Source: an uncultured Alphaproteobacteria bacterium
GTDB taxonomy: Bacteria > Pseudomonadota > Alphaproteobacteria > Rs-D84 > CACZYB01
DNA length: 32,000 bases
Assembly: GCA_934246625.1 (NCBI GenBank)
Contig: CAKQHZ010000001.1
Location: forward strand, 616,223 to 648,222
Direction of reading: 5' to 3'
Part shown: positions 972 to 28,407 of the stretch, piece after piece
How the letters are laid out: each line of letters opens with the position of its first letter
Numbering within the stretch: position 1 is the first letter of the stretch
Made by a program: the position numbers and the translations under genes
The notes under the pieces: generated by a model
Told to the model about the DNA's origin: nothing
The model's input: the letters and a program-made list of their open reading frames with translations, nothing else
Database searches by the model: none

Positions 972-1931
972 ATGAAAAAGAATTTCTTTATTGGTGTTTT
1001 TGTTGCTGGGATTGTTTCAATCATTTCCTTTTTTATGTATATTTATTTTTTCCCTGTGAATAAAAAACAAATGGTGGTGGAGCTTTCTACTGGTGATAGA
1101 CTTTCTTTGGTTGCACAAAGATTTTATGATGATGAAATTATCAATTCAAAGTTTTGGTTTAAGGTTTTTATGTATCTTTCTTGGAACCAAAACAATTTGA
1201 AATTTGGTGAGTATGAAATTCCCGCTGGTGCAACACTTAATCAGATAAAAAATATTATTACTAGTGGTCGTATGTATAATAAATTTATTACTATTCCAGA
1301 GGGAATGACCGTGAAACAAATTTATGAAATTTTGGATTCGCGAGAAGATTTGAGTGGAAAAATTTCTGTGAATGTAGAGGAAGGGAGGCTTCTTCCTCAA
1401 ACATACGCATATAACAAAATGATTTCAAAAGATGATGTGATTTTGAAAATGAAAGATGCGATGGATAGGGCTTTGAACGAAGAATGGGAAAAGCGTCAAG
1501 AAGGTCTTCCTTTTAAGGATAAGCGAGAGGCTCTTATCCTTGCATCAATAGTGGAAAAGGAAACTGGGGTGCCAGAAGAACGTGGTTTGGTTGCCTCTGT
1601 TTTTATTAACAGACTTAACAATAATTGGCGACTTCAAAGTGATCCTACGGTTGTTTATACTTTGACGAATAAGTATGGGAATATGATGGGGCGAAAACTT
1701 TATAAAAAGGATTTGGAAAAAGAAACTCCTTATAATACATATAGAATAAAGGGATTGCCAGTTGGGGCGATTTCGAATCCTGGGATTGAAAGTATAAGGG
1801 CTGTGCTTAATCCCCCTAAGACAGATTATTTTTATTTTGTGGCTGATGGAAGTGGTGGACATAAGTTTGCAACTTCACTTGAGGAGCATGAAAAAAATAG
1901 GCAAGAATGGAAAAAAATAAGAGATAATTAA
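972..1931 (+). CDS. mltG: Endolytic murein transglycosylase MltG (YceG-like)
   Basis: N-terminal TM helix (FFIGVFVAGIVSIISFFMYIYFF). YceG motifs are present: LASIVEKETGVPEERGLVASVFINRL, LQSDPTVVY, YNTYRIKGLPVGAISNPG and YFYFVADGSGGHKFA. ATG at 972 with AGGA 8-11 nt upstream is preferred over the listed 954 start. Confidence 0.85.
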   Translation: MKKNFFIGVFVAGIVSIISFFMYIYFFPVNKKQMVVELSTGDRLSLVAQRFYDDEIINSKFWFKVFMYLSWNQNNLKFGEYEIPAGATLNQIKNIITSGRMYNKFITIPEGMTVKQIYEILDSREDLSGKISVNVEEGRLLPQTYAYNKMISKDDVILKMKDAMDRALNEEWEKRQEGLPFKDKREALILASIVEKETGVPEERGLVASVFINRLNNNWRLQSDPTVVYTLTNKYGNMMGRKLYKKDLEKETPYNTYRIKGLPVGAISNPGIESIRAVLNPPKTDYFYFVADGSGGHKFATSLEEHEKNRQEWKKIRDN

Positions 1932-2011: not shown

Positions 2012-2087
2012 GGGTGTTTAGCTCAGCTGGTAGAGCAACTGACTTTTAATCAGTGGGTCACAGGTTCAAGTCCTGTAACACCCACCA
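2012..2087 (+). tRNA. tRNA-Lys (anticodon UUU), CCA encoded
   Basis: A 76-nt cloverleaf folds by hand: acceptor GGGTGTT/AACACCC, D arm GCTC-AGCTGGTA-GAGC, anticodon arm ACTGA-CTTTTAA-TCAGT, T arm ACAGG-TTCAAGT-CCTGT, discriminator A plus CCA. Confidence 0.9.
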
Positions 2088-2121
2088 AAAATCAAAAGGC
2101 TTCCGAAAGGGAGCTTTTTTT
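2079..2121 (+). repeat. Direct repeat copy 1 (tRNA-Lys 3' end plus terminator), attL-like
   Basis: The sequence cacccaccaaaaatcaaaaggcttccgaaagggagcttttttt overlaps the last 9 nt of the tRNA and recurs at 8185-8226 and 15701-15746. Confidence 0.7.
2094..2121 (+). terminator. Hairpin plus T-run terminator downstream of tRNA-Lys
   Basis: GCTTCC (2099-2104), loop GAAA, GGGAGC (2109-2114) with one G-U pair, then T7 (2115-2121). Confidence 0.6.
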
Positions 2122-2648
2122 ATTTTCCACAACGCTAGGCAGTTTCTAGTCTTTCTGGTCAGTGGCGCATTTAGAAAAATTTCGTACTTTTTCAAAAAAA
2201 TACAATTTTAGAGTCATTTTTCTCTCTATTTTCTATGTTTTTTAGATTCTACTGATCCACTCCTCTAAAACACCTAACTATATGAATTTACGAGTAAAAT
2301 AGTTAGTGGGTCAATAGATTTTTAGAGAAATGTTAAGTATATGATTTTACAATGTTTTATTTTTAGAAAAATCTTAAAATTTGTCAAAAATGATGCGTTT
2401 TTAGGGGATTTTTTTATCCCATTTTTTACATTTTTAGATTCTATTGACCCACTGATATAAAATACCAATATATTTCATTAAAAACGGAGATAGTTGTGAT
2501 TATTCTACATTAGTTCAAAAAAATTTTTTTATTTTCGCTGGAATTAAAACAGACTAATAAAAGTATATTAATTCCAATTTATTTACTTGCTTTTGTTTAT
2601 GGATAAAATTATAATTTTGTATAATTTTAGAATAGCAGGTAAAGTAAT

Positions 2649-3179
2649 ATGTTTATTAAATTAAAAAAATATATAACAGATATTTTGGAATCTATTGAAG
2701 AATATCCATTTTTCTTTTTTTGTTTTTTTCAAATAATTTTTTTTATTTGGTTTTATAAGATACCGTTATTACATAATTATATTTATAAATTAATTACTCC
2801 TAGTGAAATCTACAAGGATATAATAACTACAATAGCATCTTTTGATGGAATATTATACTCTTTATTTTTTACTGAATTTTTGAGTAAATATAAGGAAATT
2901 GGTCAAATATATTCTGATAACAAATATGTTATGAAAAAAATAAAAAAAATAATTTTGAAATTTACTTCACTGGTTTTATTCAATTTTATAGTAGCTTTAT
3001 TTTGTTTACATAAGTTTGATAAAGATTTATTTATTGACGCAAAATATATGTTTATATTATTTTTGAATTTTGCTTTTGTCGTTACTTTTTACTATTTAAA
3101 TTTTGGAAAAATGAATAAAATGTATTCTACTAAATATCTTATTGAAGGTTTAAAGGAGAATATTGATGAATATTTTTAA
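2649..3179 (+). CDS. Hypothetical multi-pass membrane protein (3-4 predicted TM segments)
   Basis: ORF with hydrophobic stretches (YPFFFFCFFQIIFFIWFY, FTSLVLFNFIVALFCL, YMFILFLNFAFVVTFYYL). It overlaps the next gene by 14 nt. No family recognised. Confidence 0.55.
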   Translation: MFIKLKKYITDILESIEEYPFFFFCFFQIIFFIWFYKIPLLHNYIYKLITPSEIYKDIITTIASFDGILYSLFFTEFLSKYKEIGQIYSDNKYVMKKIKKIILKFTSLVLFNFIVALFCLHKFDKDLFIDAKYMFILFLNFAFVVTFYYLNFGKMNKMYSTKYLIEGLKENIDEYF

Positions 3180-5223
3180 AAAGAATTATAATAATTATTA
3201 TGAATATATAGATAATTTATTAAAAATATTTGAAAATTCTGTAAAATATTTTTATACAAGTAAAAATTCTTTGGTAATTACTGATGAAACATTTAAGGAA
3301 ATTTTATCTAAAATAATAGATATATATAAGAAAATTTTAAATAGCCCTAAAAAAGAATTGCATTATAAAGAGACAAAAATTAAAGATGATGTAAATTCGA
3401 ACTTTTATATTCTGTTTAACCAGGATCAGTATATTGAAACTGTTAAGATTTTAAAAACAATATTTGATATATACCAATATTTATGTGATAATAATGATAA
3501 AGATTTAAAAGAAAAAATTCATTATACAATATATGATTTATTACTTTTTTCTTCATCGAAAGAAGATAATCAAGCCGAGGTCAATTATATATTGGACCGA
3601 TTATTTTTATGTATGTTGTCTGATAAAAATACATTAACTATTTATTATAATTTTTACACAATTGTATTCGATAGATTCCGACAAGAAAAATTTAATAATA
3701 TATATTTAACTTCATTTAATAAATATGCTTTAAATATTTTAAAGCACCTATTAGATATAGATAACATGAAAGCTTTTAAATGTGTCGTAGATATTTCAAT
3801 AAATAAATCTATGGATATTTATGATTCATACGGGGAAAATATAGATAAATTAAAAATAAATAAATTTAGAGAATTATTTTTAAAAACTACTTCTTTTGCT
3901 TTATATAAAAAAAATTATGAAGCTTTAGATATTCTATTTAATTTTCATACCCCAAAAGATTACACTGTTTTCTGGGAGAATAAAGATATTTTACCACATT
4001 CTTTAAAAGAAGTTTTTGAATGGGTATATAATAACAATATATGGGTAGAAGAATTAGAAGATCATCATGGTATAGCATCTTATTACGAAAAATTAATATA
4101 TTTATTAATATTAAGAGCTTTATATAATAACAATAATATTAGTAAGGATACTATAAATTTAAGAGATTTAGAAAATATTAATTTTTCAGATTTACATAGA
4201 ATACAAAAATTTAATTTAAAAGCATTAAAAGATTTTCATCCAAATACGAAATATAATGAGAAGGATTTAGAACAATCCGAAAAAGAGGTTCTTTCTGTAG
4301 TTAATGATATATTTAACAATAATAAGTTATTGGATATTATTGGCATAAATGAAGATAATATAGATAAAATTAAAAATGAATTTATTGACGCTTTAAAGAT
4401 AATTTCAAAATTAGCCAATGAAATGGAAATAAATATCATAAAAAAATCACAATGCTCAAATGAAAAAATAAATAATGTAAGAAACGAAATATTTAAAAAT
4501 TATCAAAAAAATAATAATTTATTATCAATATTTAACCAATATAATTTGATTTCAAATGATTATTATAATAATTTTGACACTTCATATATTGGTTATAATG
4601 TAGCCCTTTCTAAAGAAATATTCATTGACAATTATGGGGTTTCATTTGTCGGTATGGAAGCTGATTTTTCAGAAGGAATATATCGAAGAGAGAATTTAAT
4701 AATATTAGATGAAGTCAGGAAAAAAGTTCAGCAAAAATATTTAGAAGATTTGGAAAATGTAATAACTAAAAGTGAAAATAAAGAAGATTTATTTATTATT
4801 TTAAATTATGCTGATTTATTTAATTTAAGATCATTACAAAAAACAATGAATATAACATTAAAGGATAAATATCTATTTTCAGAAGAAGAAAAAAATACAT
4901 ATAAAGAATTTAATCTAAATAATTTTGTTGGTATTTTAATGTGTAATAATATTTCTATTCCTGTCTACTCTTGTTTTATGGGAGACAATAAGTCACAATT
5001 GTTTTTATTATCAAAAAATAGAGAAAAATTTGGAAGTGTCATAGAATATATATATAATGGTGAAGATAAAGAATATTTTGATGAACAAACAAAGTTATTC
5101 TGTAAATTATCAGAATTTGAAGATAAAAAAAGAGTTTTATTACAATTATATAAGAAAATAGATATTAATCTATCTGATAGTTTTGAAGGATATATGATAT
5201 CGTTAAAAGATACAGTATACTAG
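3166..5223 (+). CDS. Large hypothetical protein (685 aa from ATG 3166), no recognisable domain
   Basis: Long uninterrupted ORF in AT-rich DNA. AAGGAG (3153-3158) lies 7 nt upstream of ATG 3166. No P-loop, nuclease or other motif was recognised by eye. Confidence 0.7.
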   Translation: MNIFKKNYNNYYEYIDNLLKIFENSVKYFYTSKNSLVITDETFKEILSKIIDIYKKILNSPKKELHYKETKIKDDVNSNFYILFNQDQYIETVKILKTIFDIYQYLCDNNDKDLKEKIHYTIYDLLLFSSSKEDNQAEVNYILDRLFLCMLSDKNTLTIYYNFYTIVFDRFRQEKFNNIYLTSFNKYALNILKHLLDIDNMKAFKCVVDISINKSMDIYDSYGENIDKLKINKFRELFLKTTSFALYKKNYEALDILFNFHTPKDYTVFWENKDILPHSLKEVFEWVYNNNIWVEELEDHHGIASYYEKLIYLLILRALYNNNNISKDTINLRDLENINFSDLHRIQKFNLKALKDFHPNTKYNEKDLEQSEKEVLSVVNDIFNNNKLLDIIGINEDNIDKIKNEFIDALKIISKLANEMEINIIKKSQCSNEKINNVRNEIFKNYQKNNNLLSIFNQYNLISNDYYNNFDTSYIGYNVALSKEIFIDNYGVSFVGMEADFSEGIYRRENLIILDEVRKKVQQKYLEDLENVITKSENKEDLFIILNYADLFNLRSLQKTMNITLKDKYLFSEEEKNTYKEFNLNNFVGILMCNNISIPVYSCFMGDNKSQLFLLSKNREKFGSVIEYIYNGEDKEYFDEQTKLFCKLSEFEDKKRVLLQLYKKIDINLSDSFEGYMISLKDTVY

Positions 5224-5319
5224 TAGATAACTTATAAATTTAACTAAAATTTTTATATTTGCATAATTTGTATTTCTGATATAGATATATTCTATATATC
5301 AAAAACAAGTGAGGTTGAT

Positions 5320-5415
5320 ATGAAGATGTTCTTTTTGTGGTGTATATTCTTTACAAATTTCCCGCTTTGGTTGTTTTGGTACATTTTTTTACGTAATAAT
5401 AATTCTAAAAAGTAA
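5320..5415 (+). CDS. Candidate 31-aa hydrophobic peptide (MKMFFLWCIFFTNFPLWLFWYIFLRNNNSKK)
   Basis: ATG 5320 is preceded by GTGAGG 5-6 nt upstream, and the stop TAA is at 5413-5415, 8 nt before the next gene. Too short to be in the ORF track, so support is weak. Confidence 0.3.
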   Translation: MKMFFLWCIFFTNFPLWLFWYIFLRNNNSKK

Positions 5416-5423
5416 GATAATTA

Positions 5424-7787
5424 ATGATAAAAAAACACTTATCAGAAATCAAAGAGTTAATGCAAGAATGGGATTATGAAGCTAATAAAGATTTAGATCC
5501 TACAAAACTTACTGTTGGTAGTAAAGAAAACGTTTTATGGAAGTGTTCAAAATGTGGTTATCATTGGCATGCTATGATTAATAGGAGATATAGTAATCAT
5601 ACTGGATGTCCTGCATGTGCAAATAAAGTATTTGCAAAAGGGTATAATGATTTAGAAACAATATATCCAGAAATAGCAAAAGAATGGCACCCAACAATGA
5701 ATGGAAATTTGACTCCAAGTGATGTTAAACCAGCAAGTCTTAATCGTGTATGGTGGTTATGCCCAATTTGTAATAATGCTTACCAAAAAAGAATTATGGA
5801 TAGAGTAAAAAAGGGATCTAAATGTAATAAATGTTGTGATCCTAAAGTAATACAGGGAAAAAATGATATTGCTACAAAATTTCCAGATTTATTAAAGGAA
5901 TGGAATTATGAAAAAAATTATCCATTTTTACCACAAAATTTTTCTTATGGAAGTACAAGAAAATTTTGGTGGAAATGTTCAAAATGTAATTATGAATGGA
6001 TGGCTACAGCTTTAAATAGAAATAATTCAGGTTTTGGATGCCCAGTATGTAAACAATCTTCTGGTGCAATAAAAGGATTAACAGATTTAGGAAAAACACA
6101 TCCTGAACTAGCTAAAGAATGGGATTATGAAAATAATAAAAATCTAACACCAGAACAAGTTAAAGCAGGTTCAGGAAAAAATGTATGGTGGAAATGTCTT
6201 AAATGTCATTGCTCCTATAAAACACAAATAATTGCGAGAGTTAAAGGCAGAGGTTGTCCGAATTGTAAAGATACAGGAGTTGTAGATGGATTTAATGATT
6301 TTCAAACATTATATCCAAATCTTGTAAAAGAATGGCATCCAACAAAGAATACTAAAAAGCCAAATCAAATAAAATCGAAGTCTAAGTATAATGCTTTTTG
6401 GATATGTCCAACATGTGGATTAGTTTGGCAAGCACCTGTGGTAAGTCGAGTTGTCCAAGGGAGAGATTGTCCTGCATGTAATGATACTTCATTAGTTCCT
6501 GGAGTTAATGATTTAGCAACAAAATTTTCTGAAATTGCAAAAGAGTGGCATTCTACTAAAAATGGAGATTTAACTCCAAAAGACGTAAAATATGGAAGTC
6601 GTAAAAAAGTATGGTGGAAATGTTCTGTATGTAGTAAAGAATGGGAAACAACTATTGATAGTCGAACAAGACAATTATCTGGTTGTCCTCGATGTTTAAA
6701 TTCGAAACAAACATCATATCCAGAACAAGCGATTTATTATTATGTTCAACAAATATATCCAGATGCTATTAATAAATATAAAGCTGATTTTTTAGGAAGA
6801 ATGGAACTAGATATTTTTATTCCATCAATTAATTTTGCAATTGAATATGATGGTGAAGCTTGGCATAGAGAAAATAAGCGTTCAATGGAACAAAGAAAAT
6901 ATAAACTTTGTCAAAATAAAGGGATTAAACTTATAAGAATTAGAGAAAAACTTACATCTTTAGGTTGTGAAATTTCTGATGATCAGATAGGTATTGTTAA
7001 ATTAAATGGTAAAAATAGTTTGGAAGAAACAATAAAATATTTAATTAATAAAATTAATTTTACAGGCAAAAATATTCATGTCGATTTAATAAATGATGAA
7101 ATGTTAATTCGTTCATTATGTCATGGGAATCCTAAAGATTCTTTAGAAAAATTATTTCCAGAATTAGTTTGTGAATGGCATCCAACATTGAATAAAGATT
7201 TGAAACCTGAAAATGTATCATGTGGATCTAATCTAAGAGTTTGGTGGCTATGCCCTAAATGTAGCCAATCTTACAAAGCATCTATTAATCATAGAGTAAA
7301 AAGTAAATCAGGTTGTCCGGTATGTTCAAATAGGAAAGTAGCAACTGGAATTAATGATTTATTTACTACAAATCCGGATTTAGCTAATGAGTGGCATCCA
7401 ACAAAAAATGGAAGTTTAACACCTCATGATGTTACATATGGTTCAGGCAAAAAAGTTTGGTGGTTATGTCCTAAATGTAAATATGAATGGTTTCAAAGTG
7501 TAAATAGAAGAACTTCGATGAAATTAGGTTGTCCTTGTTGTACGGGAAAAAAATTAATAGTTGGTAAAAATGATTTAGCAACAGAATGTCCAGAATTAGC
7601 AAAAGAATGGCATCAAACTAAAAATGGAAATTTATCTCCAAAAGATGTAAAAGCAGGAAGTCATTTCCCTGTATGGTGGAAATGTTCTGTATGTGGTAAT
7701 GAATGGAAAACAGATATTAGGTCAAGAGTAAAAGGACGGAAGTGTCCTAATTGTTCTAAAAAACAATTAAAACTAGATTTAAAATAG
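5424..7787 (+). CDS. Multi-zinc-ribbon protein with central PD-(D/E)xK (Vsr/DUF559-like) nuclease-fold domain
   Basis: Nine copies (6 N-terminal, 3 C-terminal) of a ~55-aa unit, EW(H/D/N)xxxNxxLxPxxVxxGSxxxVWWxCxxCxxxWxxxxxxRxxxxxGCPxC (CxxC...CxxC zinc ribbon, DUF4379-like). The central part, YPEQAIYYYVQQIY...MELDIFIPSINFAIEYDGEAWH...KYKLCQNKGIKLIRIRE, resembles the D...ExDG...K core of Vsr/DUF559 endonuclease-like domains. Confidence 0.85.
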   Translation: MIKKHLSEIKELMQEWDYEANKDLDPTKLTVGSKENVLWKCSKCGYHWHAMINRRYSNHTGCPACANKVFAKGYNDLETIYPEIAKEWHPTMNGNLTPSDVKPASLNRVWWLCPICNNAYQKRIMDRVKKGSKCNKCCDPKVIQGKNDIATKFPDLLKEWNYEKNYPFLPQNFSYGSTRKFWWKCSKCNYEWMATALNRNNSGFGCPVCKQSSGAIKGLTDLGKTHPELAKEWDYENNKNLTPEQVKAGSGKNVWWKCLKCHCSYKTQIIARVKGRGCPNCKDTGVVDGFNDFQTLYPNLVKEWHPTKNTKKPNQIKSKSKYNAFWICPTCGLVWQAPVVSRVVQGRDCPACNDTSLVPGVNDLATKFSEIAKEWHSTKNGDLTPKDVKYGSRKKVWWKCSVCSKEWETTIDSRTRQLSGCPRCLNSKQTSYPEQAIYYYVQQIYPDAINKYKADFLGRMELDIFIPSINFAIEYDGEAWHRENKRSMEQRKYKLCQNKGIKLIRIREKLTSLGCEISDDQIGIVKLNGKNSLEETIKYLINKINFTGKNIHVDLINDEMLIRSLCHGNPKDSLEKLFPELVCEWHPTLNKDLKPENVSCGSNLRVWWLCPKCSQSYKASINHRVKSKSGCPVCSNRKVATGINDLFTTNPDLANEWHPTKNGSLTPHDVTYGSGKKVWWLCPKCKYEWFQSVNRRTSMKLGCPCCTGKKLIVGKNDLATECPELAKEWHQTKNGNLSPKDVKAGSHFPVWWKCSVCGNEWKTDIRSRVKGRKCPNCSKKQLKLDLK

Positions 7788-7801
7788 ATTTAGAAATTTT
7801 A

Positions 7802-7835
7802 ACTTCATAGTTTAGGATTATGCAAACTATGAAGT
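7802..7835 (+). terminator. 12-bp perfect hairpin after the zinc-ribbon gene (possible terminator, no T-run)
   Basis: acttcatagttt (7802-7813), 10-nt loop, aaactatgaagt (7824-7835). Confidence 0.4.
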
Positions 7836-7970
7836 ATAAGCAATAATCATATCCAAATTATAGTAACCAAGAACTTCTTTCTATATTTTTTTTAAAGCAT
7901 GATTTACGACAGTTGCAAAATTTGCAGTTATCGAGTTTTCTGCAAATTAGCCATCATTAAAGTGGAAAAC

Positions 7971-7997
7971 TAGTTACGAATGGTATAGGATTAGTAT
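7971..7997 (+). repeat. 27-nt direct repeat, copy A
   Basis: tagttacgaatggtataggattagtat matches 25/27 with 8095-8121. Confidence 0.7.
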
Positions 7998-8094
7998 TCT
8001 CCCAACCAAAATAGAGAATTTTAGAAAATTTGAAAAAAAATGATGAATATGGTAAAACACTAAGAAAACTCTATATTGGAGCAGTTTTCGAGAA

Positions 8095-8121
8095 TAGTTA
8101 TGAATGGTATAGGATTAATAT
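8095..8121 (+). repeat. 27-nt direct repeat, copy B
   Basis: tagttatgaatggtataggattaatat lies about 65 nt upstream of att-like copy 2. Confidence 0.7.
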
Positions 8122-8184
8122 ATAGTCGAAATGGATTGACCGATTTCTGCGGTTTAGAAATTGTTCGGGAATGGATATAAACCC

Positions 8185-8226
8185 CCCACCAAAAATTCAA
8201 AAAGGCTTCCGAAAGGGAGCTTTTTT
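8185..8226 (+). repeat. Direct repeat copy 2 (tRNA-Lys 3' end plus terminator), internal att-like junction
   Basis: Sequence is cccaccaaaaattcaaaaaggcttccgaaagggagctttttt. The stretch aaaaattcaaaaaggcttccgaaagggagctttttt is identical to copy 3. Copy 1 differs by two 1-nt gaps. Confidence 0.7.
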
Positions 8227-8506
8227 CTTTGCCTATAGACCCTAGATTCTTCCTAGTGTAATAATTAGAGATAATCTATAAGTTATTTAGAAATTTCTTT
8301 TTAAGCATTTTCTCTCTATTCTCTATGCTTTATCCGAAGAACGCCTTATGTATTTGAATATACTTAATTTTATAACTGCGGATACAATAGAAAAGTTGTA
8401 GAAAATCTGTGGAGTAGCAAAAAGTATCAAAAAACTAGCTTATGATCTACAGTTTTAAAGGTTTATTTTCCTTGAAAGTAGTTTTTATAGGAGTATAATA
8501 CATCTT

Positions 8507-8821
8507 ATGTATAATAAAAAGGATGTCAAAATGGCTGCAAATTTCAAAAGAAAAGGAAATGAACTTAGAGATATACATACTCGTCTTATTGGAAAAATTG
8601 ATGGTAAATATATTCGTGATGCACATGCTTGTCTTATGGGCAAAATTGATGGAATGGATGTAAAAGATAAACACGGTATAAAAATTGGTCGTTTAGATGG
8701 GGATTACATTCGAGATGTACATAATGTAAAAATTGCAACAAGAAAAGATTTAATAAAGTCAATAGATGGAACAACAGGTGGTATTGAAGATGTCGCTCTA
8801 TATTTGTTTTTTGTAAGATAA
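8507..8821 (+). CDS. Small protein made of four tandem 16-aa repeats
   Basis: Repeats are ELRDIHTRLIGKIDG / KYIRDAHACLMGKIDG / MDVKDKHGIKIGRLDG / DYIRDVHNVKIATRKD, consensus xx(I/V)(R/K)DxHxxx(I/M)G(K/R)(I/L)DG. An alternative start at ATG 8531 has AAGGA 9 nt upstream. Confidence 0.5.
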   Translation: MYNKKDVKMAANFKRKGNELRDIHTRLIGKIDGKYIRDAHACLMGKIDGMDVKDKHGIKIGRLDGDYIRDVHNVKIATRKDLIKSIDGTTGGIEDVALYLFFVR

Positions 8822-8840
8822 ATTTTAAAAAGGGGGCAAA

Positions 8841-9548
8841 ATGGAAAATAAAAAAGAAACAAAGATAGATAATTTTTTAGCATATATTGCTGGTATATGT
8901 GCATTTATTGGTATATGTGCGATAGTTTATAAATTATATCTTTTTGGATTTACAAGAGAAAATATTGCTGATGCTTCAATAAATCTTGCACAAATTTTAA
9001 CAAGTATTGGTGTCTTGTTTGGAGTTCTTTCATCACTTAGAACTTTATTAAAATGTCCTAAAAGTTATTTTTTTAAGGAGTTAGAAAAGTGGAATAAAAA
9101 ATATGGTATATTAACAGATTGCAGCGAAGAATATGAAAAAGGTAAGGGAAAATTTATTAAATGCCAAATGTTGAGAAATCATGCAAATATATTAAAAAAT
9201 AAAGATAACCTTGAAGAACATTCAAAGGCATATATAAATTTTGTTAGAATTCCAACAGAAAATTTAGATGGAAATAAAATAATTTTTTCTTTAAAACCAT
9301 CAATGTTTAAAAAAAATGACAGAAAAGAACTTGAAAAATATGCTGAAAAAATAGTTGAAAAATTAAAAATAAGATATAGCGAAATTATTGATGATGACAA
9401 AGTTAAAATTTCATCTTTTGACAGAAAAGATGAAGTTATATATATTCATCTCGGATTAAACAGTGAATTAGATAATAAAAAAGAAATTTACAATCAAATC
9501 ATAGATATGCTTGATTATATGACTATGGTGTATCTTGCAATAGCTTAG
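8841..9548 (+). CDS. Hypothetical protein with two N-terminal TM helices
   Basis: GGGGG RBS 4 nt upstream of the ATG. TM candidates are FLAYIAGICAFIGICAIVYKLYLFGF and LAQILTSIGVLFGVLSSL. The remainder is charged and unassigned. Confidence 0.6.
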   Translation: MENKKETKIDNFLAYIAGICAFIGICAIVYKLYLFGFTRENIADASINLAQILTSIGVLFGVLSSLRTLLKCPKSYFFKELEKWNKKYGILTDCSEEYEKGKGKFIKCQMLRNHANILKNKDNLEEHSKAYINFVRIPTENLDGNKIIFSLKPSMFKKNDRKELEKYAEKIVEKLKIRYSEIIDDDKVKISSFDRKDEVIYIHLGLNSELDNKKEIYNQIIDMLDYMTMVYLAIA

Positions 9549-9637
9549 TTTAATTTATTCAATACATTGCATCGTAAGGATAGTATATTGAATGGTTCGT
9601 GTAAACTTTTTAAATAAAAATAATAAGAAGTGTAAAA

Positions 9638-10198
9638 ATGAATAAAGAAAATATAATATCTTTTTATGTTGAAATAATAAAATCGATATTGGAAATCTAT
9701 AGATTAAATCAAAATAAAAATACTCAAAAAATTACCAAAAGAATTTTAAATTGGATTATTCGCGAATATAAGGGAAAAATAAAATTATATGCATCAGAAG
9801 ATGCAATAAAATGGGCAAAAAGCCAAGGTATTAATGATAACCTTTCAAATTATAATTGGAAAGATCAAGTAAAAAAGAAAGAAAAAGGTGGTCTTGGGGA
9901 TAAAAAAAGAGAAAATTTACATCTTGAACATATTATTCCTATTTCTCAAATAATAGAAAATTTATTTGAAACAAAAACTTCCAATAATATACAAAATATA
10001 TTAAATGAAATTTCTGTTGCTTGGATTAAAAGGGATCAACAACAAAAATTAGATAAAGGACATAAAAAAGAAAGAGGTGAAAATTTAAAAAAATGTTTAG
10101 AATGTTGTAAAGAATATTGTGGTGAATTGACAGAAATTGGTGAGTACAAAGTACCTTTGGATTATGATAATGAAAGTGAAAAAAATGATATTTTGTAA
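9638..10198 (+). CDS. Hypothetical protein, possible His-Me finger (HNH/DUF1524-like) motif
   Basis: The ORF contains NLHLEHIIPISQ followed about 30 aa later by ISVAWIKRDQQQKLD, reminiscent of HNH-type nucleases. This assignment is weak. Confidence 0.5.
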   Translation: MNKENIISFYVEIIKSILEIYRLNQNKNTQKITKRILNWIIREYKGKIKLYASEDAIKWAKSQGINDNLSNYNWKDQVKKKEKGGLGDKKRENLHLEHIIPISQIIENLFETKTSNNIQNILNEISVAWIKRDQQQKLDKGHKKERGENLKKCLECCKEYCGELTEIGEYKVPLDYDNESEKNDIL

Positions 10199-10454
10199 GT
10201 TTTTTATTTCTTTAACTGGCATATTAGGGTGTTTACAAATATCAAACTTACAAATTTCTTCATGCGTTAATTTTCTTTCTAATATTTTTGAAAGTTTAAA
10301 AGACAAAGAATTTAGAATAGAAATTGATAGATTGAATTTTATATTTACTCCAACTTTAAAAACTGGTTTTAACTTTGATTTAGATTTTGATTTTAAATCA
10401 TTTGATTTCGAAGTTTCATTATTAGGATTGGATTTAAAACTTAAACTTTGGTGA
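10185..10454 (+). CDS. Possible small lipoprotein (hypothetical)
   Basis: The internal ATG at 10185 gives MIFCKFFISLTGILGC, a lipobox-like ILGC. The rest is rich in F/D/L dipeptide-like strands. There is no clear RBS. Confidence 0.3.
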   Translation: MIFCKFFISLTGILGCLQISNLQISSCVNFLSNIFESLKDKEFRIEIDRLNFIFTPTLKTGFNFDLDFDFKSFDFEVSLLGLDLKLKLW

Positions 10455-10460
10455 TAAATT

Positions 10461-10793
10461 ATGTATTATTTAGATAAAGTTATTTACAAAAATTATAAAG
10501 ATATTTTTCATTTAGAATTTTTTTTTGAATTAAAAAGATTTTTTGATATTTCTATAAACATTTTCAATATAATTAATGGTGGATTTTATATAAGAAATTA
10601 TACAAAGCCAGATGATTTTTTCTATGATTCAAAACCAATTTGTTTGTATAAATTAAAAAATATTCATTTTAACTTTGGATATAATAAAGATCTTTATACA
10701 GGTATGGAAATAGGAGATTATCTATCTAATTCAAAAAATAATTTTTATATTCAATTTGGAATTTTAGGATTGATATTTTCTATAGGTCAGTAG
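10461..10793 (+). CDS. Hypothetical protein
   Basis: Supported by the ORF only. It starts 6 nt after the previous stop. Confidence 0.35.
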   Translation: MYYLDKVIYKNYKDIFHLEFFFELKRFFDISINIFNIINGGFYIRNYTKPDDFFYDSKPICLYKLKNIHFNFGYNKDLYTGMEIGDYLSNSKNNFYIQFGILGLIFSIGQ

Positions 10794-11111
10794 GTAAAAT
10801 ATAATTTATTTCCGGATAAAATATATTTTCATTTGTTAGTGATTTTGTGGTAACAAATTTTATCTTGCTATTTTTGGGATAATTACGATATGTTTGTCTA
10901 AAATGAGGCAGATAAAATGTGTAATTTTGATTTAAGAGAAATTGTTGAAGAAAATTTAAATAAAAATTTTGTTTTTTTTACTGGTTTTATACAAAAGATT
11001 TATATAAGATGAAGATTCCTGTGAATTTTTGTGATATTAACTTTTTTTTCTTTACATATAATATACTAAAAAATATAGTATGATTTATTCTTCTATATAC
11101 AGGATTATGTT

Positions 11112-11441
11112 GTGTCAAAATTAAAAGAATTTATGGATATTGATGATTTATCTTCAGCAGATATTGTTGATTTCTTATTTGGTAGTTTAAAACTATTAGA
11201 AAAAGACCCTTCTATTATTTCAAAGATAATTGATGACAGCAAAGATGGCAAAATATGTATGTATATTATTAGTAATCTTGAGGTACAAAGATGGGAACAA
11301 GTAGTATCAAAAAATGATAGAGCATTATGTATTAAATCTCTTAGATATTTATATAGTAAATTACCAAATGAACAAAAAAAATACTATAAAATAGAATTTT
11401 TTGATAAACACCCAGAAATTTTTGAAGGTCAAAACATCTAA
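11112..11441 (+). CDS. Hypothetical protein
   Basis: ORF with a GTG start and AGGA 8 nt upstream. No family recognised. Confidence 0.45.
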   Translation: MSKLKEFMDIDDLSSADIVDFLFGSLKLLEKDPSIISKIIDDSKDGKICMYIISNLEVQRWEQVVSKNDRALCIKSLRYLYSKLPNEQKKYYKIEFFDKHPEIFEGQNI

Positions 11442-11512
11442 TGAAAAGATAAAGAATAGTATTTAATCCATCTTTTCAGTTAATTTCTTTATCAAAGCTA
11501 TATGCTTTTTTA

Positions 11513-12418
11513 TTACAAAAATTCTTTTATCAACTTTGGCAAAAGTTTATTTTGTTTCTTGCTTCCATGACCAAAACTATCAATAATATGCAAAGTTGAT
11601 TTTGGCATAGCTTTGTGTAAAGTATATGCCTGTTCAAGTGGAGTACAGAAATCCAATCTGTTACCAATTATAAGTGTTGGAATATTTTTAATTTTGCCAA
11701 TATTTTCGATAATTTCATTTTCTTTTATAAAATAGTGTTCTGTATAGTAATGCATATAAATTTTAAAGGAATTAACTACCTTATCCCCCAGTTCTTCATC
11801 AAGATTTATTTTTAACTTACCAATTTGATAATCATAGTTTGTAAGATATTTTACAGTCTTTTTAATTTTAGCATTACTTTGCTTAAATAAATTTTCCAAA
11901 TCTTTGTGAGTTTTTATAAGATATGGTGAAAGTTTTTCAATTATGTCAGGGTAGAACATCTTTGAATCTTTGTATGTCCAATTTGCATCTTTCTTCCTTG
12001 CTAAGAAAGTTTGTGATACAATTATTTTATCAACTAATTCAGGGTATGTTTCTGCAAACAAAAGTGCAAGTGTAGAACCCCATGAACCACCAAAAGAAAT
12101 TACCTTTTCTTTTATATTAAGGAAATCAAGAATTCTTTTTGCATCTTTAATTGTATCTTGAGTGGTATTTTTATAAAATAAATCTTTAAATTCAGAATTT
12201 CCACAACCACGTTGATCAAAAATAATTACTTTATAATTTTTGAGATTACAACATTTTACATATTTAAATTTACTTCTTGCTCCTGGACCTCCATGAAAAT
12301 TTAAGATGGTTTTCCCATTTGGGTTACCAAATACTTGGAAGTAAATTTTATGTCCATCAAGTTCGGGAAGATATCCTTTAAAAATAGCCTTTGGCTTATG
12401 TGAAAATATATGAAACAT
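11513..12418 (-). CDS. pip: Proline iminopeptidase (prolyl aminopeptidase, S33 alpha/beta hydrolase)
   Basis: HGGPG oxyanion motif (FHGGPGARS), nucleophile elbow GGSWGSTLAL, C-terminal SFGHGS, about 300 aa. Confidence 0.85.
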   Translation of the reverse strand: MFHIFSHKPKAIFKGYLPELDGHKIYFQVFGNPNGKTILNFHGGPGARSKFKYVKCCNLKNYKVIIFDQRGCGNSEFKDLFYKNTTQDTIKDAKRILDFLNIKEKVISFGGSWGSTLALLFAETYPELVDKIIVSQTFLARKKDANWTYKDSKMFYPDIIEKLSPYLIKTHKDLENLFKQSNAKIKKTVKYLTNYDYQIGKLKINLDEELGDKVVNSFKIYMHYYTEHYFIKENEIIENIGKIKNIPTLIIGNRLDFCTPLEQAYTLHKAMPKSTLHIIDSFGHGSKKQNKLLPKLIKEFL

Positions 12419-12437
12419 TCTATTGCCTTTTTTTAAT

Positions 12438-12472
12438 ATAATATATAATTATTAACATAATATATAATTATT
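12438..12472. promoter_or_regulatory. Perfect 16-bp direct repeat in a divergent promoter spacer (candidate operator)
   Basis: ataatatataattatt occurs at 12438-12453 and again at 12457-12472, inside the 66-bp spacer between pip (-) and the AlaRS-like operon (+). Confidence 0.35.
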
Positions 12473-12484
12473 TCAAGGTGTTAA

Positions 12485-13594
12485 ATGAATAATTATAAAG
12501 AATTTGTATCTGAAATTTCTTCTTTTTTTAATTTAGAAAAAGTATCTGGTGAATATTTCCGATTTAAAGATCAAAAAAATATTAGTAATTTCCCTAAACA
12601 ATCTATTCATGAATATTTTAATGATGTTCCATTAATTCCTGCGGATAATGTCATAAGAACTGATGATAGTACAACGCTTTTTACATGTGCTGGAGTGCAA
12701 CATATAGAAACAATGATAAAAAATAATGAAATTTTAAAAGATTTTAGTATTTATCAACCATCTATAAGAACTCAGTTTATTGGTAAAACAAAAGAAGGAG
12801 TTTCTACATCTTTTGTTAATTTTTCTTCAACTATATTTAATATTTCGAATGATAAATTTTTAGATAAAACAAAAAGTTATATTTCTTTACTTAATAATTA
12901 TGGATACAATAATAATGATTTATTAGTTAGATTTGAAGAAAGATCTAATGCTTGGGGAACTAAAAAATTTACTACATATGTTGCTAGTTTATATTATAAT
13001 AATTTTAGAATGGGAGAATGTATTTTTATGAAATATTTTCCCATAAATTCAAATCAAGTTTCTAATATTATGGAAGTCGGATTTGGTCTAGAAAGAATGG
13101 AATGGTTATCAAAAAAAAATAATTATTATTTTTCTAGATACAAAGAAATTTATGATCAATTTAAAAATAATGATGTTTCTATTGATCAAATTACAACTAT
13201 CATTGATTCTGTAAGAACTTCAATCTTAATTGCTGGTAATGGAATAGTTTCAAGTAATAATAATCATGGATATAGATTAAGACAGTTATTAAAGCATTTT
13301 GTTTTTAATAATGCCAATATATCAATACCTTTAAATAAATTAGAACGAATAGCATATGATGAATGGAAATCTAATACATTCGTTCAGTATGATAAAATAT
13401 GTGATATTATAGGAAAAGAAGTTGAAAGAAATGAACATGCATATTTATTAGATTTATTAAAGAGGTGTAATATAAAAACAAATATAGATATAACATTACC
13501 AAATGATGCTTTTATAAGATCTTTAAAAAGTCGTATTTATAGAGAGAATACAGACGTGATATTAGATAAATTATTTAAAGAAAAGGTTAAATAA
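12485..13594 (+). CDS. Truncated alanyl-tRNA-synthetase-like protein (class II catalytic core only, 369 aa)
   Basis: Matches to E. coli AlaRS recalled from memory: TLFTCAGVQH ~ LFTNAGMNQF, SIRTQ ~ CVRAGG, FVNFS ~ LGNFSF, EVGFGLERMEWL ~ DTGMGLERIAAVL, IIDSVRTSILIAGNGIVSSNNNHGYRLRQLL ~ [31 protein letters not shown]. It lacks the editing and C-Ala domains. Confidence 0.8.
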   Translation: MNNYKEFVSEISSFFNLEKVSGEYFRFKDQKNISNFPKQSIHEYFNDVPLIPADNVIRTDDSTTLFTCAGVQHIETMIKNNEILKDFSIYQPSIRTQFIGKTKEGVSTSFVNFSSTIFNISNDKFLDKTKSYISLLNNYGYNNNDLLVRFEERSNAWGTKKFTTYVASLYYNNFRMGECIFMKYFPINSNQVSNIMEVGFGLERMEWLSKKNNYYFSRYKEIYDQFKNNDVSIDQITTIIDSVRTSILIAGNGIVSSNNNHGYRLRQLLKHFVFNNANISIPLNKLERIAYDEWKSNTFVQYDKICDIIGKEVERNEHAYLLDLLKRCNIKTNIDITLPNDAFIRSLKSRIYRENTDVILDKLFKEKVK

Positions 13595-14266
13595 ATGGGA
13601 GCTCTAATTTCTGATTTTTTATCTTACAAGCATTCTGTTTATGATGAAATTTCTGATTTATCAAAAAAAGAGATAGATAATTTTTACTCTTTTATATTAG
13701 GTGGTGTAAAATTTAATAATTCAAGTCCTAAACTTATTATGATGTTGGGTATTAGTGGAGCGGGGAAAAGTACATTTTTTAATAATGCAAAGCAATATTA
13801 TAAAGATTATGCTTTTTTATCAGGTGATGAAATTATGCATAATTTACAAATTTTTAAAGAATTAAAATTATTAAATAAATCATCACATAATGATTTTCGA
13901 ATTTGTGAAACAATTTCTAGAAAGCTATCATTCTATATTTTAGATTATTTAATTTCAAATAAAGCAAATATTTTTTATGATTGTGGAGGTTTGGATTTAA
14001 ATAAAAAAAATATGGTTAGATATATAAGTGATTTGGGATATAAAATAGAAATTAATGCTATTCTAGCAGATAAAAAAATTGCTATCGATAGAGTAATAAA
14101 ACGTCATTATAAAAATGGAGGTGGTTATATACCAGTTGATTTAATTGAACAAAATTTCAATGAGGTTTTACCAGCTATTAATTATTATAAGCAATTTGTT
14201 GATAAGATAAATATTTATAACAATAATAATAAAATTTTTTTAGAAGAAACTTATATAAAAAGATAA
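13595..14266 (+). CDS. P-loop kinase (zeta-toxin / APS-kinase-like small-molecule kinase fold)
   Basis: Walker A is MMLGISGAGKST, followed by FLSGDEIMHNL (compare (I/L)DxDxxRxxH in zeta toxins and LDGDNVRHGL in APS kinase). The ATG directly follows the stop of the upstream gene. Confidence 0.7.
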   Translation: MGALISDFLSYKHSVYDEISDLSKKEIDNFYSFILGGVKFNNSSPKLIMMLGISGAGKSTFFNNAKQYYKDYAFLSGDEIMHNLQIFKELKLLNKSSHNDFRICETISRKLSFYILDYLISNKANIFYDCGGLDLNKKNMVRYISDLGYKIEINAILADKKIAIDRVIKRHYKNGGGYIPVDLIEQNFNEVLPAINYYKQFVDKINIYNNNNKIFLEETYIKR

Positions 14267-14276
14267 GGAGTTTTAT

Positions 14277-15527
14277 ATGGATATTTGTATTTTTAATTCA
14301 AACACTAATGTTAATGCACAAGATTATGAAGTCGTTGAACGTAAAGGTATTGGCCATCCTGATACAATCTGTGATACTTTAGCAGAAAAGATAAGTGCTA
14401 ATTATTCTCTATATACATATCAAAAATATGGACATATATTTAGACATATGATTGATAAATTATCTATTTTAGGGGGAAAAACAAAAGTTTATTTTGGAGG
14501 TGGAGAATTTATAAAACCTATAAGAATACTACTAAATGGACGATTTACTGGAAACTTCTGTGATGAAAAAATTCCATATATTGATATTGCTACAGAAACT
14601 ATTTATAAACATATGAAATTCCTATTTCCTATGATAGATTGTAAAAAAAATATAGAAATAATAGATAATACGCATTCATCGCAAGGTCCTGGTGTTGTAT
14701 ACAAAAAAGATGGAACAACGAATAATGAACGTTCTAGTTTTTTTAACATAAAAAATGAAGCATTTATGCAATATCATAATAATATGAATAGAACAAATGA
14801 TACATCTACTACTGTTAGTTTTTATCCATATACAGTTCTAGAAAATGTTGTGTTATTTGTAGAAAATCAATTAAATTCTGAAGAATTTAAAAAGAAGTAT
14901 CCTTTTGTTGGTAACGATATAAAAGTAATGGGAACAAGAATTGGCAAAAACATAGATATTACAACTTGTATACCTTTTATTTCTTTATATACTCCTGATA
15001 AAAATTTTTACAAAGACAATATAAGCTTTTTAAAAAATCTTTTAATCAATATGTTATCAAAAAAATATTCGGATTATTCTTTTAATATTTCTATAAATAC
15101 AAGAGATAATTTAGAAAACGATGATTTATATTTAACATTAACAGGAAGTGCTGTTGAAAGTGGAGATGAGGGGGCCGTTGGACGAGGTAATAGAAGTTGT
15201 GGATTTATTCCTTTTTGCCGTAATGTATCTTTAGAGGCTCCGTGTGGTAAGAATCCTGTATATCATACAGGGAAGTTATTTACTGCTATTGGAAATATTA
15301 TATCTAATAGAATTTATAGCCAAACAGGCATTGAAAATACTGTTTATTTAACAAGTCAGATGGGGGGTAAAATAGAAGAAACTTGGAAGATTGCTATTGG
15401 TTTAACAAATAGTCCTTCTATTTCACTAGAATTAAAAAATACAATTGAAGATATTGTAAATGAAGAGTTAAAAAATCATAATAAAACTACACAAGATATA
15501 ATTTTGGAAAAGATAAAATTATATTAG
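14277..15527 (+). CDS. Archaeal-type S-adenosylmethionine synthetase (MAT)-like protein
   Basis: EVVERKGIGHPDTICD, RILLNGR, LTLTGSAVESGDEGAVGRGNR and EAPCGKNPVYHTGK match the archaeal MAT family signature (M. jannaschii MAT recalled from memory), not bacterial MetK. AAGGAG lies 6 nt upstream of the ATG. Confidence 0.85.
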   Translation: MDICIFNSNTNVNAQDYEVVERKGIGHPDTICDTLAEKISANYSLYTYQKYGHIFRHMIDKLSILGGKTKVYFGGGEFIKPIRILLNGRFTGNFCDEKIPYIDIATETIYKHMKFLFPMIDCKKNIEIIDNTHSSQGPGVVYKKDGTTNNERSSFFNIKNEAFMQYHNNMNRTNDTSTTVSFYPYTVLENVVLFVENQLNSEEFKKKYPFVGNDIKVMGTRIGKNIDITTCIPFISLYTPDKNFYKDNISFLKNLLINMLSKKYSDYSFNISINTRDNLENDDLYLTLTGSAVESGDEGAVGRGNRSCGFIPFCRNVSLEAPCGKNPVYHTGKLFTAIGNIISNRIYSQTGIENTVYLTSQMGGKIEETWKIAIGLTNSPSISLELKNTIEDIVNEELKNHNKTTQDIILEKIKLY

Positions 15528-15646
15528 ATAAAATTTAATATACTTAAGATTTATTCCTATGAAAATAATATTAAGTGTAGGCTAAATGACTTTTTATAGA
15601 TGAGTTTTTTATGGTTGGTTTCGGTTATCCGAAATAGATTAGAAAC

Positions 15647-15707
15647 CTGTAGAATAGCAAAAAGACTGACTTTTAGAAAAGTTAGAGAAAGGTTCACAAT
15701 CACCCAC
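15647..15707 (+). pseudogene. Degenerate fragment of a tRNA-Lys (D-arm to 3' end)
   Basis: ctgtagaatagcaaaaag-ACTGACTTTTA-gaaaagttagagaaa-GGTTCA-caat-CACCCAC. The capitalised blocks are identical to the anticodon arm, T arm and acceptor 3' strand of the tRNA-Lys at 2012-2087. caatcacccac matches the CUU isoacceptor at 18760-18835. Confidence 0.45.
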
Positions 15708-15746
15708 TAAAAATTCAAAAAGGCTTCCGAAAGGGAGCTTTTTTTA
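15701..15746 (+). repeat. Direct repeat copy 3 (tRNA-Lys 3' end plus terminator), attR-like
   Basis: Sequence is cacccactaaaaattcaaaaaggcttccgaaagggagcttttttta. It has the same T7 followed by att as copy 1. The sequence to its right is visibly GC-richer. Confidence 0.7.
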
Positions 15747-15962
15747 TTGTGTATCGGTCTAGATGATGGGTGTTGAGGTCTTTACAGCCCAGTCAATTCT
15801 AAACTCTGTCATTTGTGTCATTTCGAACTTGTTTCGGAATCTTTCTCTTATACCTTTCTAAAATAGGATAAAGTTCTTTACATATATTCTCAAATATGAT
15901 ATTATGAGAGTGTCCATGAAGAATAAAGGAGAAGAAAAATGATTAGACAAAATAGACGAATT

Positions 15963-15971
15963 GGGGGGGGG
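15963..15971 (+). repeat. Homopolymeric G9 tract (candidate slipped-strand phase-variation site)
   Basis: Nine consecutive G in very AT-rich DNA, inside a 15-codon ORF (ATG 15939, AAGGAG at 15926-15931) and 78 nt upstream of the 248-aa ORF. Confidence 0.6.
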
Positions 15972-16048
15972 CTTTTGCTTGCATAGATTTCATTGGTAGT
16001 TGCAGTTTTGCACGAACTATTGGAAACGTCTTCACTTTCGCAGTTATT

Positions 16049-17871: not shown

Positions 17872-17899
17872 GAAACTGTCATTTATTGGTAAAAAATAA

Positions 17900-17935
17900 A
17901 GGTCAGATGTTAATGCTCTGGCCTTTAAAATTTTA
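17900..17935 (+). terminator. Putative terminator of the secreted-protein operon
   Basis: AGGTCAGA (17900-17907) pairs with TCTGGCCT (17917-17924) with one G-U pair, followed by ttaaaatttt. Confidence 0.5.
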
Positions 17936-17993
17936 TGTAATGATATTATCATATATGTAATATTTTTTATTCTTTTAAATAATATTTTAACTT

Positions 17994-18027
17994 AAAAAAA
18001 ATCCCCCAGTTATGCCGAGGGATTTTT
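17994..18027. terminator. Bidirectional hairpin terminator (best fit for the minus-strand HTH gene)
   Basis: A7 (17994-18000), ATCCC (18001-18005) pairing with GGGAT (18019-18023), then T4. Read on the minus strand, the hairpin is followed by T7. Confidence 0.55.
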
Positions 18028-18112
18028 ATAAATAAAAACCATAGAGAAAAATATCTTTTATTTGCATTAAATTAAAGAGATAGCGTCGAGCCTCCTTCTT
18101 ACTACAGAAAAA

Positions 18113-28405: not shown

Positions 28406-28407
28406 GA

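Follow-up and report, generated by a model that had tools for sequence, protein, structure and literature searches.

Three cassettes, probably inserted serially, behind a tRNA-Lys(UUU) gene in an uncultured gut alphaproteobacterium

We examined a 32,000-nucleotide stretch of the genome of an uncultured Alphaproteobacteria bacterium (contig CAKQHZ010000001.1; hereafter the window), in which a tRNA-Lys(UUU) gene at 2012-2087 on the plus strand (ARAGORN; Rfam tRNA, 76.8 bits) is the probable target of serial integration. The core gene mltG (YceG family, 972-1931, plus strand; Pfam YceG, E=8.5e-81) lies on the left flank and served as the anchor for comparison. The upstream 10 kb hold rpoD, a gene for a helix-turn-helix (HTH) protein, fabF and mltG, while a glycosyltransferase cluster lies downstream, and the gene order mltG to tRNA-Lys(UUU) is kept in all of the nearest relatives from genome collections. 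The region 2125-17962 of the window consists of three cassettes, probably inserted serially, behind the tRNA gene, up to a convergent gene for a 77-residue regulator.

The last 9 nt of the tRNA gene (CACCCACCA) open the first of three direct repeats. A first-pass annotation, made from the sequence without database searches, had reported three direct copies of the tRNA 3' end and its terminator, and their boundaries could be refined to 2079-2124, 8183-8230 and 15701-15748, all on the plus strand. Copy 1, which resembles a left attachment site (attL), consists of CACCCACCA, a spacer, the hairpin GCTTCC-GAAA-GGGAGC and the T-run TTTTTTTATT. Copy 2 starts with CCCCCACCA and would be a hybrid attachment (att) site between islands 1 and 2, and copy 3, starting with CACCCACTA, resembles the right attachment site (attR) of the two AT-rich islands; both have the layout of copy 1. 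The tRNA part of copies 2 and 3 is a 9-nt CACCCAC(C/T)A fragment, to which 37 nt of downstream sequence are added. Pairwise identity among the three units is 43-45 of 48 aligned positions. In agreement with the earlier description, copies 2 and 3 have an exact run of 36 nt in common, and copy 1 differs from them by two 1-nt gaps, which are located in the spacer. The 26-mer AAAGGCTTCCGAAAGGGAGCTTTTTT has exactly three matches in the whole window, starting at 2095, 8201 and 15719 and all on the plus strand, and none in 100 dinucleotide-preserving shuffles. The cassette borders are intrinsic terminators, with a 6-bp stem and a GNRA loop, plus a tRNA fragment. In Rfam searches only tRNAs scored above the gathering threshold, with nothing but sub-threshold matches in the conserved left arm described below. 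The DNA between the copies is more AT-rich than its surroundings, as had been noticed by eye: the G+C fraction is 0.249 in island 1 (2125-8182) and 0.242 in island 2 (8231-15700), islands of 6.1 and 7.5 kb, against 0.352 in the left flank and 0.359 in 15749-17962 (24-25% versus 35-36%).

Exact-protein look-ups placed window proteins in contigs from Hadza gut metagenomes and the exact MltG protein in 13 contigs. The MltG cluster representative P0001 (99% identical) occurs in many contigs with differing downstream content. The closest relatives in genome collections are metagenome-assembled genomes with MltG proteins 70-73% identical, four labelled Alphaproteobacteria or proteobacterium. In two strains of the same species, L040 and L041 (MltG 99% identical), the tRNA gene and a single terminator are joined to the window sequence from 15749 onward (98.8% identity over 9.9 kb), and both AT-rich islands are absent. 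This is the empty site that the first-pass annotation had predicted, with tRNA-Lys joined to sequence from about 15747. In L039, the terminator is joined to window position 17963 onward and all three cassettes are absent; this junction identifies 15749-17962, which is missing from L039 and from L044, where a terminator likewise meets 17963 onward, as a third cassette. Of the proposal of two tandem islands, the two repeat-bounded islands stand, with the third cassette to be added to them, and the repeat-bounded presence/absence expected between strains was found in L040, L041 and L039. The insertion/deletion breakpoints seen in empty alleles fall on copies 1 and 3; none of the alleles puts copy 2 by itself to the test. 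Contigs ending at 2123 or starting at 15748 were rejected as evidence for polymorphism, as an intragenomic 31-nt repeat explains them.

In the allele L044, the tRNA gene is followed by a different, element-borne terminator, an arm and two small genes; next comes a perfect 26-nt copy of the tRNA 3' part, ahead of the native terminator and the flank. Judged from its sequence, this single-cassette allele presents a textbook attL/attR pair. Together with the empty alleles, it supports the earlier proposal of a site-specific integration footprint with tandem accretion. Other alleles hold different cargo at the same position. In L036-L038 and L043, a module running from a hydrolase to an S-adenosylmethionine (SAM) synthetase gene, which also occurs in island 2, lies beside the tRNA gene and is followed by methyltransferase and HEPN/GmrSD genes (L036, L037) or IceA (L038). 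L035 holds DUF4379, NUMOD and RhuM genes, and L032, L033 and L042 hold GIY-YIG nuclease cargo. The locus is equally polymorphic in a second species (L045-L053), and in L014, from another species, a different terminator of its own is repeated 5.65 kb downstream around AT-rich AbiL-like cargo. In L032, L033 and L042, the GIY-YIG cassette (~11190-13310; window equivalent ~18004-18070) interrupts the next, convergent terminator and not the tRNA-end repeat, making the region a hotspot with more than one entry point.

A repeat of this kind might be a generic terminator or a repetitive extragenic palindromic (REP) element rather than an insertion boundary, which the first-pass annotation had named as the finding that would undermine its proposal. 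The concern is borne out to the extent that the same terminator family lies behind tRNA-Val and two tRNA-Met genes. On the other hand, all matches to the 26-mer in ~447 kb of DNA from the same species, with up to 3 mismatches allowed, immediately follow a tRNA 3' end or a CCCACCA pseudo-end, terminator copies lacking a tRNA are confined to cassette borders, and copies 1 and 3 match the breakpoints of empty alleles exactly. We consider this explanation hardly credible.

The ends of the cassettes are conserved. The left arm of island 1 (2125-2520, ~400 nt, plus strand) is non-coding and is 88-91% identical to sequences in L018, L025 and L026, despite MltG proteins that are only 70-75% identical and different terminators. 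Within it, CTAGGCAGTTTCTAG at 2135-2149 forms a paired motif, positions 2305-2318 and 2440-2453 form a perfect inverted repeat of 14 nt accompanied by promoter-like TTGACC boxes, and ~190 nt are duplicated in tandem. The contigs lend no support to an invertible promoter in the arm, the inverted-repeat segment having one orientation in 8 of 8 instances. At the left ends of cassettes, CTAGGCAGTTTCTAG(C/T)C stands 10-14 nt past the T-run; copy 2 has a looser variant. When relaxed, the paired TAGGCA-type motif gave 13 matches in ~489 kb, all in tRNA orientation and directly behind a tRNA end or pseudo-end. At the right end of island 2 (15672-15700, plus strand), the motif TTTTAGAAAAGTTAGAGAAAGGTTCACAAT is identical at 32 of 33 nt in the species of L014, where it is followed by L014's own terminator. 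The arrangement TTTAGAAAAGTTAGAGAAA(T)GG, 12-19 nt, then CCCACCA is present at window copy 3, L035 and L014, while copy 2 is preceded by TTCGGGAAT-N12-CCCACCA, a motif found with the same spacing at the attR of a tRNA-Val island described below. An older right-end remnant (...GAATGGTATAGGATTAGTATTCTCCCAACCAAAA..., 7961-8045, plus strand), which lacks the hairpin, lies within island 1 and is 96% identical to sequence behind a DUF4379-NUMOD gene of L018. Cross-species homology breaks at CACCCAC|CA, suggesting that crossover took place within the terminal ~10 nt of the tRNA gene. Across species, the ends are conserved better than a flanking protein-coding gene, which argues, at the level of sequence comparison, either that they are under selection or that they have spread recently.

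No integrase, excisionase, relaxase or phage structural match was obtained for any island open reading frame (ORF) with Pfam, PHROGs, NCBIfam and PADLOC, in line with what the first-pass annotation had seen in the translations. A Pfam scan of the other window ORFs gave no such match either, and the islands had no type IV secretion match. A comparison extended to ~25 alleles of the tRNA-Lys locus, representing at least three species, revealed no tyrosine or serine recombinase and no related integrative and conjugative element (ICE) or integrative and mobilizable element (IME). In the window, no intI gene adjoins the array and the cassette borders are not attC-type sites. The 224-residue HTH protein encoded upstream of fabF was considered as a recombinase and rejected, since it gave HTH matches only and no catalytic domain. 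Pattern scans of IMG/VR (a right-end 17-mer, two left-arm patterns, a CTAG motif and the TTTAGAAAAGTTAGAGAAA motif) returned chance or coding matches or none, so that no phage or satellite attP site was found. In metagenomes of the Joint Genome Institute (JGI), a 27-nt right-end pattern had 0 matches, and an MltG profile retrieved only two short relevant contigs. With no recombinase in the window or in ~25 alleles, the earlier framing of the islands as either decayed or mobilised in trans proved to be the right one.

The first of these alternatives would make the islands immobile fossils whose own integrases were deleted, with presence/absence arising from RecA-mediated deletion between the 46-48-nt repeats and from homologous allele replacement through the flanks. 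Such a history would fit the degenerate tRNA-derived part of copies 2 and 3, the hairpin-less remnant at 7961-8045, two overlapping ORFs of island 1 that look like a split gene, and the mosaic cargo; decay of an ICE or IME to a cis-mobilizable element (CIME) has been described (PMC5704250). It is at odds, however, with ~10 cassette types in at least three species that hold neither an integrase nor a recognisable integrase fragment, their intergenic gaps being below 720 nt, and with cassette ends conserved above the flanking coding gene across species. L044, moreover, has an undecayed 26-nt tRNA fragment, yet only two small genes. We regard the fossil explanation as rather improbable.

Taking these results together, we favour, as the likely origin of the locus, that att-flanked cargo islands lacking autonomy were inserted one after another, site-specifically, into the 3' end of the tRNA gene, probably by a recombinase supplied in trans; the explanations by fossils, homologous exchange, homing or a generic terminator all rank below it. 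Each island would have entered as a circle whose attP comprised the right arm, CCCACCA, the terminator and the left arm. The partner of this circle in recombination would have been the terminal ~10 nt of the tRNA gene, where the stretch CACCCACCA is common to tRNA-Lys(UUU), tRNA-Lys(CUU) and tRNA-Val. The incoming element would supply a new tRNA end and terminator and push earlier insertions outward, which would make island 1 the newest. The islands would accordingly behave like CIMEs that depend on a recombinase encoded elsewhere.

Several observations weigh against serial site-specific insertion. The repeat is conserved best in its terminator, not in the tRNA fragment, and it is uncommon for an att core that identity should continue for 37 nt past the tRNA. 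Behind tRNA-Val and two tRNA-Met genes stand terminators nearly identical to it (GGCT(T)CC-loop-GG(G)AGC, then TTTTTTTATT), so part of the repeat similarity may reflect a common tRNA-terminator family; in terms of sequence, the terminator type of the repeat is not private to the tRNA-Lys locus. Terminators and arms occur in mosaic combinations, with four terminator types (H, H2, H3 and H4) beside the same arm; with these types the position of crossover cannot be fixed, and later homologous shuffling of the ends is likely. In L036 and L037, what lies to the left of the hydrolase module varies without a repeat boundary, the GIY-YIG cassette of L032 and L042 is inserted in the next terminator, and the third cassette is bounded by only 9 nt. 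No circular form, active excision or proven recombinase was found. Finally, the only recombinase associated with these elements, introduced below, is a small serine enzyme, and recombinases of the small resolvase/invertase type are not known as tRNA-island integrases.

Terminators of this near-identical type were seen behind at least four other tRNA genes, at L093 (11150-11190) and L091 for tRNA-Met and at L094 and L098 for tRNA-Val. An arm of ~300 nt after the terminator is common to tRNA-Val, one tRNA-Met gene and L095.

Some of these points would also suit a recombination hotspot that involves no site-specific step, in which content is swapped by homologous recombination between conserved flanks and the repeated terminators are by-products, resembling the 'minimal mobile elements' of Neisseria. 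Such a hotspot could draw on a right boundary formed by a 350-470-nt unit that is 94-98% identical at several loci, on a terminator family and arms that lie behind several tRNA genes, on the mosaic terminator/arm combinations and on the part of the variation that has no repeat boundary. Homologous exchange, however, does not generate direct duplications of a tRNA 3' end, yet L044 has its perfect 26-nt fragment, and CCCACCA pseudo-ends mark tRNA-Val and, in two species, every border of the AT-rich islands. We therefore judge homologous swapping without a site-specific step to be unlikely.

Insertion at a tRNA 3' end can be compared with several known systems. CIMEs and tandem accretion have been described in Streptococcus agalactiae, where a tRNA-Lys gene is occupied at its 3' end (PMC5704250). 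The islands resemble CIMEs in that attL and attR are kept, integration and transfer genes are absent, the elements stand in tandem at a tRNA 3' end and a hybrid att site lies between neighbours. They differ from CIMEs in that no integrase-bearing ICE or IME counterpart was found in any allele, and they may or may not descend from one; they are small cassettes (1.6-7.5 kb) with family-specific conserved non-coding arms in an uncultured gut alphaproteobacterium. Displaced tRNA fragments mark island ends in the Islander approach (PMC4383910), and here too an intact tRNA gene at one end is matched by a displaced, directly repeated 3' fragment at the other, and presence/absence polymorphism is seen; the present islands differ by having no tyrosine integrase gene and by a repeat that runs 37 nt beyond the tRNA through the terminator. 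In the tycheposons of Prochlorococcus (bioRxiv 10.1101/2020.12.28.424599), cargo is likewise stacked at tRNA genes with partial tRNA copies between, new arrivals push older ones inward into the island, and remnants and cargo are left behind, but all tycheposons have a recombinase of the tyrosine or large serine type and many also a replication module, and neither was seen here. Integrons share with the locus small recombinase-less cassettes at one site, repeated hairpin-containing borders and a recombinase that would act in trans; in contrast, no intI adjoins the array, the borders are terminators and tRNA fragments rather than attC, and the cassettes bring promoter-bearing arms.

The cargo of island 1 consists of three ORFs on the plus strand. 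A 176-residue membrane protein (2649-3179) overlaps a 686-residue ORF (3163-5223), and neither had a match in Pfam, PHROGs, NCBIfam or PADLOC. Their relatives number only 6 among 5.8 billion proteins and share the promoter region of the gene; three of them are single proteins of 794-810 residues, which indicates that the two ORFs are probably one gene, split in the window. Members of the 686-residue family have a small serine recombinase nearby in L089 and L090, with DNA methyltransferases as further neighbours in L090. The 686-residue protein was considered as a hidden recombinase: its AlphaFold2 model (pLDDT 60) gave generic helical repeats in Foldseek with TM-scores of at most 0.24, an uninformative outcome with no recombinase fold. 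The third ORF (5424-7787) encodes a 787-residue protein with nine DUF4379 treble-clef zinc fingers (Pfam DUF4379, E=7.8e-168, 9 stretches) and a central homing-endonuclease-like region, matching PHROG 'HNH endonuclease' and 'homing endonuclease' families with E values down to 1e-53.

The presence of such a gene raises the possibility of homing-endonuclease drive, in which nucleases encoded beside the tRNA gene (DUF4379 with or without NUMOD, or GIY-YIG) would cleave unoccupied sites, whose repair would copy the cassette in. Homing-endonuclease-like genes do recur, as the 787-residue protein of the window, in L018, L035 and L047 (DUF4379 with NUMOD) and in L032 and L042 (GIY-YIG). The cassettes of L044, L036-L038 and L014 lack one, however, and the mechanism gives no duplications of a tRNA end, leaving homing a very unlikely cause of the pattern.

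The left part of island 2 (8231-11441, plus strand) contains an arm with CTAGATTCTTCCTAG at 8242-8256 and small ORFs of 104 (Bflower_2-like), 235, 186, 105, 110 and 109 residues. Homologs of the 186/105/110-residue trio, the first with 61% identity, lie upstream of mltG in L018 (7149-8126, minus strand), so the trio moves independently of the tRNA-Lys slot. The right part (11513-15527, mixed strands) is a four-gene module, recognised by Pfam and NCBIfam matches and by PDB matches to alanyl-tRNA synthetase (AlaRS). It encodes an alpha/beta hydrolase (11513-12418, minus strand), a 369-residue protein like the AlaRS core, a 223-residue zeta-toxin-like P-loop kinase and a 416-residue archaeal-type SAM synthetase. 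The module is 97-98% identical in strains L035-L038 and L043, where it stands beside different neighbours, and in several strains it adjoins restriction-modification (R-M), GmrSD or HEPN genes. The islands are mosaics, with internal content that varies between strains without repeat boundaries. The first-pass annotation had called the island genes mostly ORFans, which is true of several ORFs without any family, but not of the DUF4379/homing-endonuclease-like protein, the hydrolase, the zeta-toxin-like kinase and the SAM synthetase.

The third cassette (15749-17962, plus strand, G+C fraction 0.359) carries two putative surface or lipoprotein genes (16049-16795 and 16792-17871) and is bounded only by the 9-nt sequence TTTTTTATT at 15740-15748 and 17963-17971. 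A G9 tract (15963-15971) lies in the leader of the first gene, and gene calls of 285 and 234 residues were obtained from samples differing by 1 nt at this tract, a pattern that suggests slipped-strand phase variation of the lipoprotein pair.

PADLOC gave no significant match for the window cargo, the four-gene module included. Sister alleles carry AAA_21 with RloB, KAP NTPase, GmrSD_N, HEPN, methyltransferase, IceA, HsdR-like start, AbiL-like and R-M genes. Judging from the nucleases, the kinase/SAM-synthetase module and these defence genes in sister alleles, the cargo looks defence- or conflict-related.

Distally, the variable region is closed by a multi-copy unit (18114-18467, minus strand) that faces the tRNA gene. 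It consists of an ORF for a 77-residue HTH protein (18113-18346, minus strand) and ~120 nt of upstream sequence, and its copies are 94-98% identical at the DNA level. The identical protein was found in 83 index blocks in several unrelated genomic contexts, and copies of the unit (also in L091 and L093-L097) adjoin cas9-cas1-cas2, polA, a 3-deoxy-D-arabino-heptulosonate 7-phosphate (DAHP) synthase gene and several tRNA-adjacent cargo regions. At loci where a neighbouring tRNA could be placed, the 77-residue gene faces it. A recurrent layout thus emerges at several tRNA genes, comprising the tRNA, an H-type terminator, an arm, cargo and the 77-residue gene facing back. The AlphaFold2 model of the protein (pLDDT 78) matched best the R-M controllers C.BclI and C.Esp1396I, with TM-scores of 0.75-0.79; the predicted fold therefore resembles that of R-M controller (C) proteins.

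Homologs of the 686-residue cargo led to an island of the same species in a tRNA-Val(UAC) gene (L098 3791-10800; also L089), with empty alleles in L094 and L097. It shares a contig with L040 and is ~45 kb away from the tRNA-Lys locus. Its direct repeat is ~10 nt long (TCACCCACCA); attR consists of TTCGGGAAT-N12-CCCACCA and then an H-type terminator, and attL has the paired TAGGCA motif. When the attR arm was aligned to the right arms at tRNA-Lys, only the core, the TTCGGGAAT motif and the terminator aligned convincingly. At the distal island end, 170 nt from attR, a 195-residue serine recombinase with Resolvase and HTH_7 domains is encoded, and a 199-residue paralog lies 4.5 kb further on. Upstream of the gene for the 195-residue protein is a promoter (TTGACT-17-TATAAT) flanked by inverted repeats, ACCACCGTCTA ... 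TAGACGGTGGT. No tyrosine recombinase was detected in the tRNA-Val island, and a 349-residue island protein, considered as one, gave no signal.

The 195-residue protein is the only recombinase seen in the element family, and its association with the tRNA-Val island weakly supports this Mpi/resolvase-type serine recombinase as the candidate trans-acting enzyme. The name given by NCBI to its close homologs is 'master DNA invertase Mpi family'. Mpi of Bacteroides fragilis acts in trans on many distant promoters (PMC4747536). The recombinase of the tRNA-Val island shares with Mpi the family name of its homologs and an inverted-repeat-flanked promoter upstream of its own gene, whereas Mpi inverts promoters, integration or excision of islands at tRNA genes is not known for the family, and no inversion was seen here.

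These results raise a more specific, tentative possibility, that of an undescribed chromosomal cassette system in which short, non-autonomous islands with conserved non-coding arms would be inserted at, and moved among, tRNA 3' ends sharing CACCCACCA by a small Mpi/resolvase-type serine recombinase supplied in trans by a sister island, slots would be closed by the 77-residue gene, and the terminators would be footprints delivered by the elements. The arms of such a system may be a paired TAGGCA-type motif on the left and, on the right, TTTAGAAAAGTTAGAGAAA or TTCGGGAAT-N12-CCCACCA.

The locus offers a population-level view of the turnover of accessory, probably defence, genes in poorly known uncultured human-gut Alphaproteobacteria from Hadza metagenomes, and this turnover takes place at a single tRNA-anchored slot without any cassette-borne integrase. 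If one trans-acting recombinase did serve all slots, especially a small serine enzyme, this would reveal both a new way in which defence islands are assembled and a compact system for site-specific integration. In metagenomes, the conserved ends offer a practical means of detecting such cassettes together with the largely uncharacterised genes they carry.

A second lysine tRNA gene, tRNA-Lys(CUU) (18760-18835, minus strand; ARAGORN), is convergent with tRNA-Lys(UUU), 86% identical to it and ends in the same CACCCACCA, the two forming an inverted repeat (2011-2091 versus 18756-18836) that brackets the entire variable region. In three related species (L014, L016, L019), tRNA-Lys(CUU) lies upstream of mltG instead, and in L014 both tRNA-Lys genes have the same terminator. 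Further downstream, the glycosyltransferase cluster contains paralogous gene starts that are 82-86% identical (25311-25403 / 26233-26325 and 28407-28505 / 29341-29439), involving two DUF6492 genes and a methyltransferase and an acetyltransferase with a common N-terminus. Beyond them, a 376-residue protein (30264-31394, minus strand) has an Mtd_N domain, which corresponds to the N-terminal part of the major tropism determinant and is known from targets of diversity-generating retroelements and from phage tail fibres.

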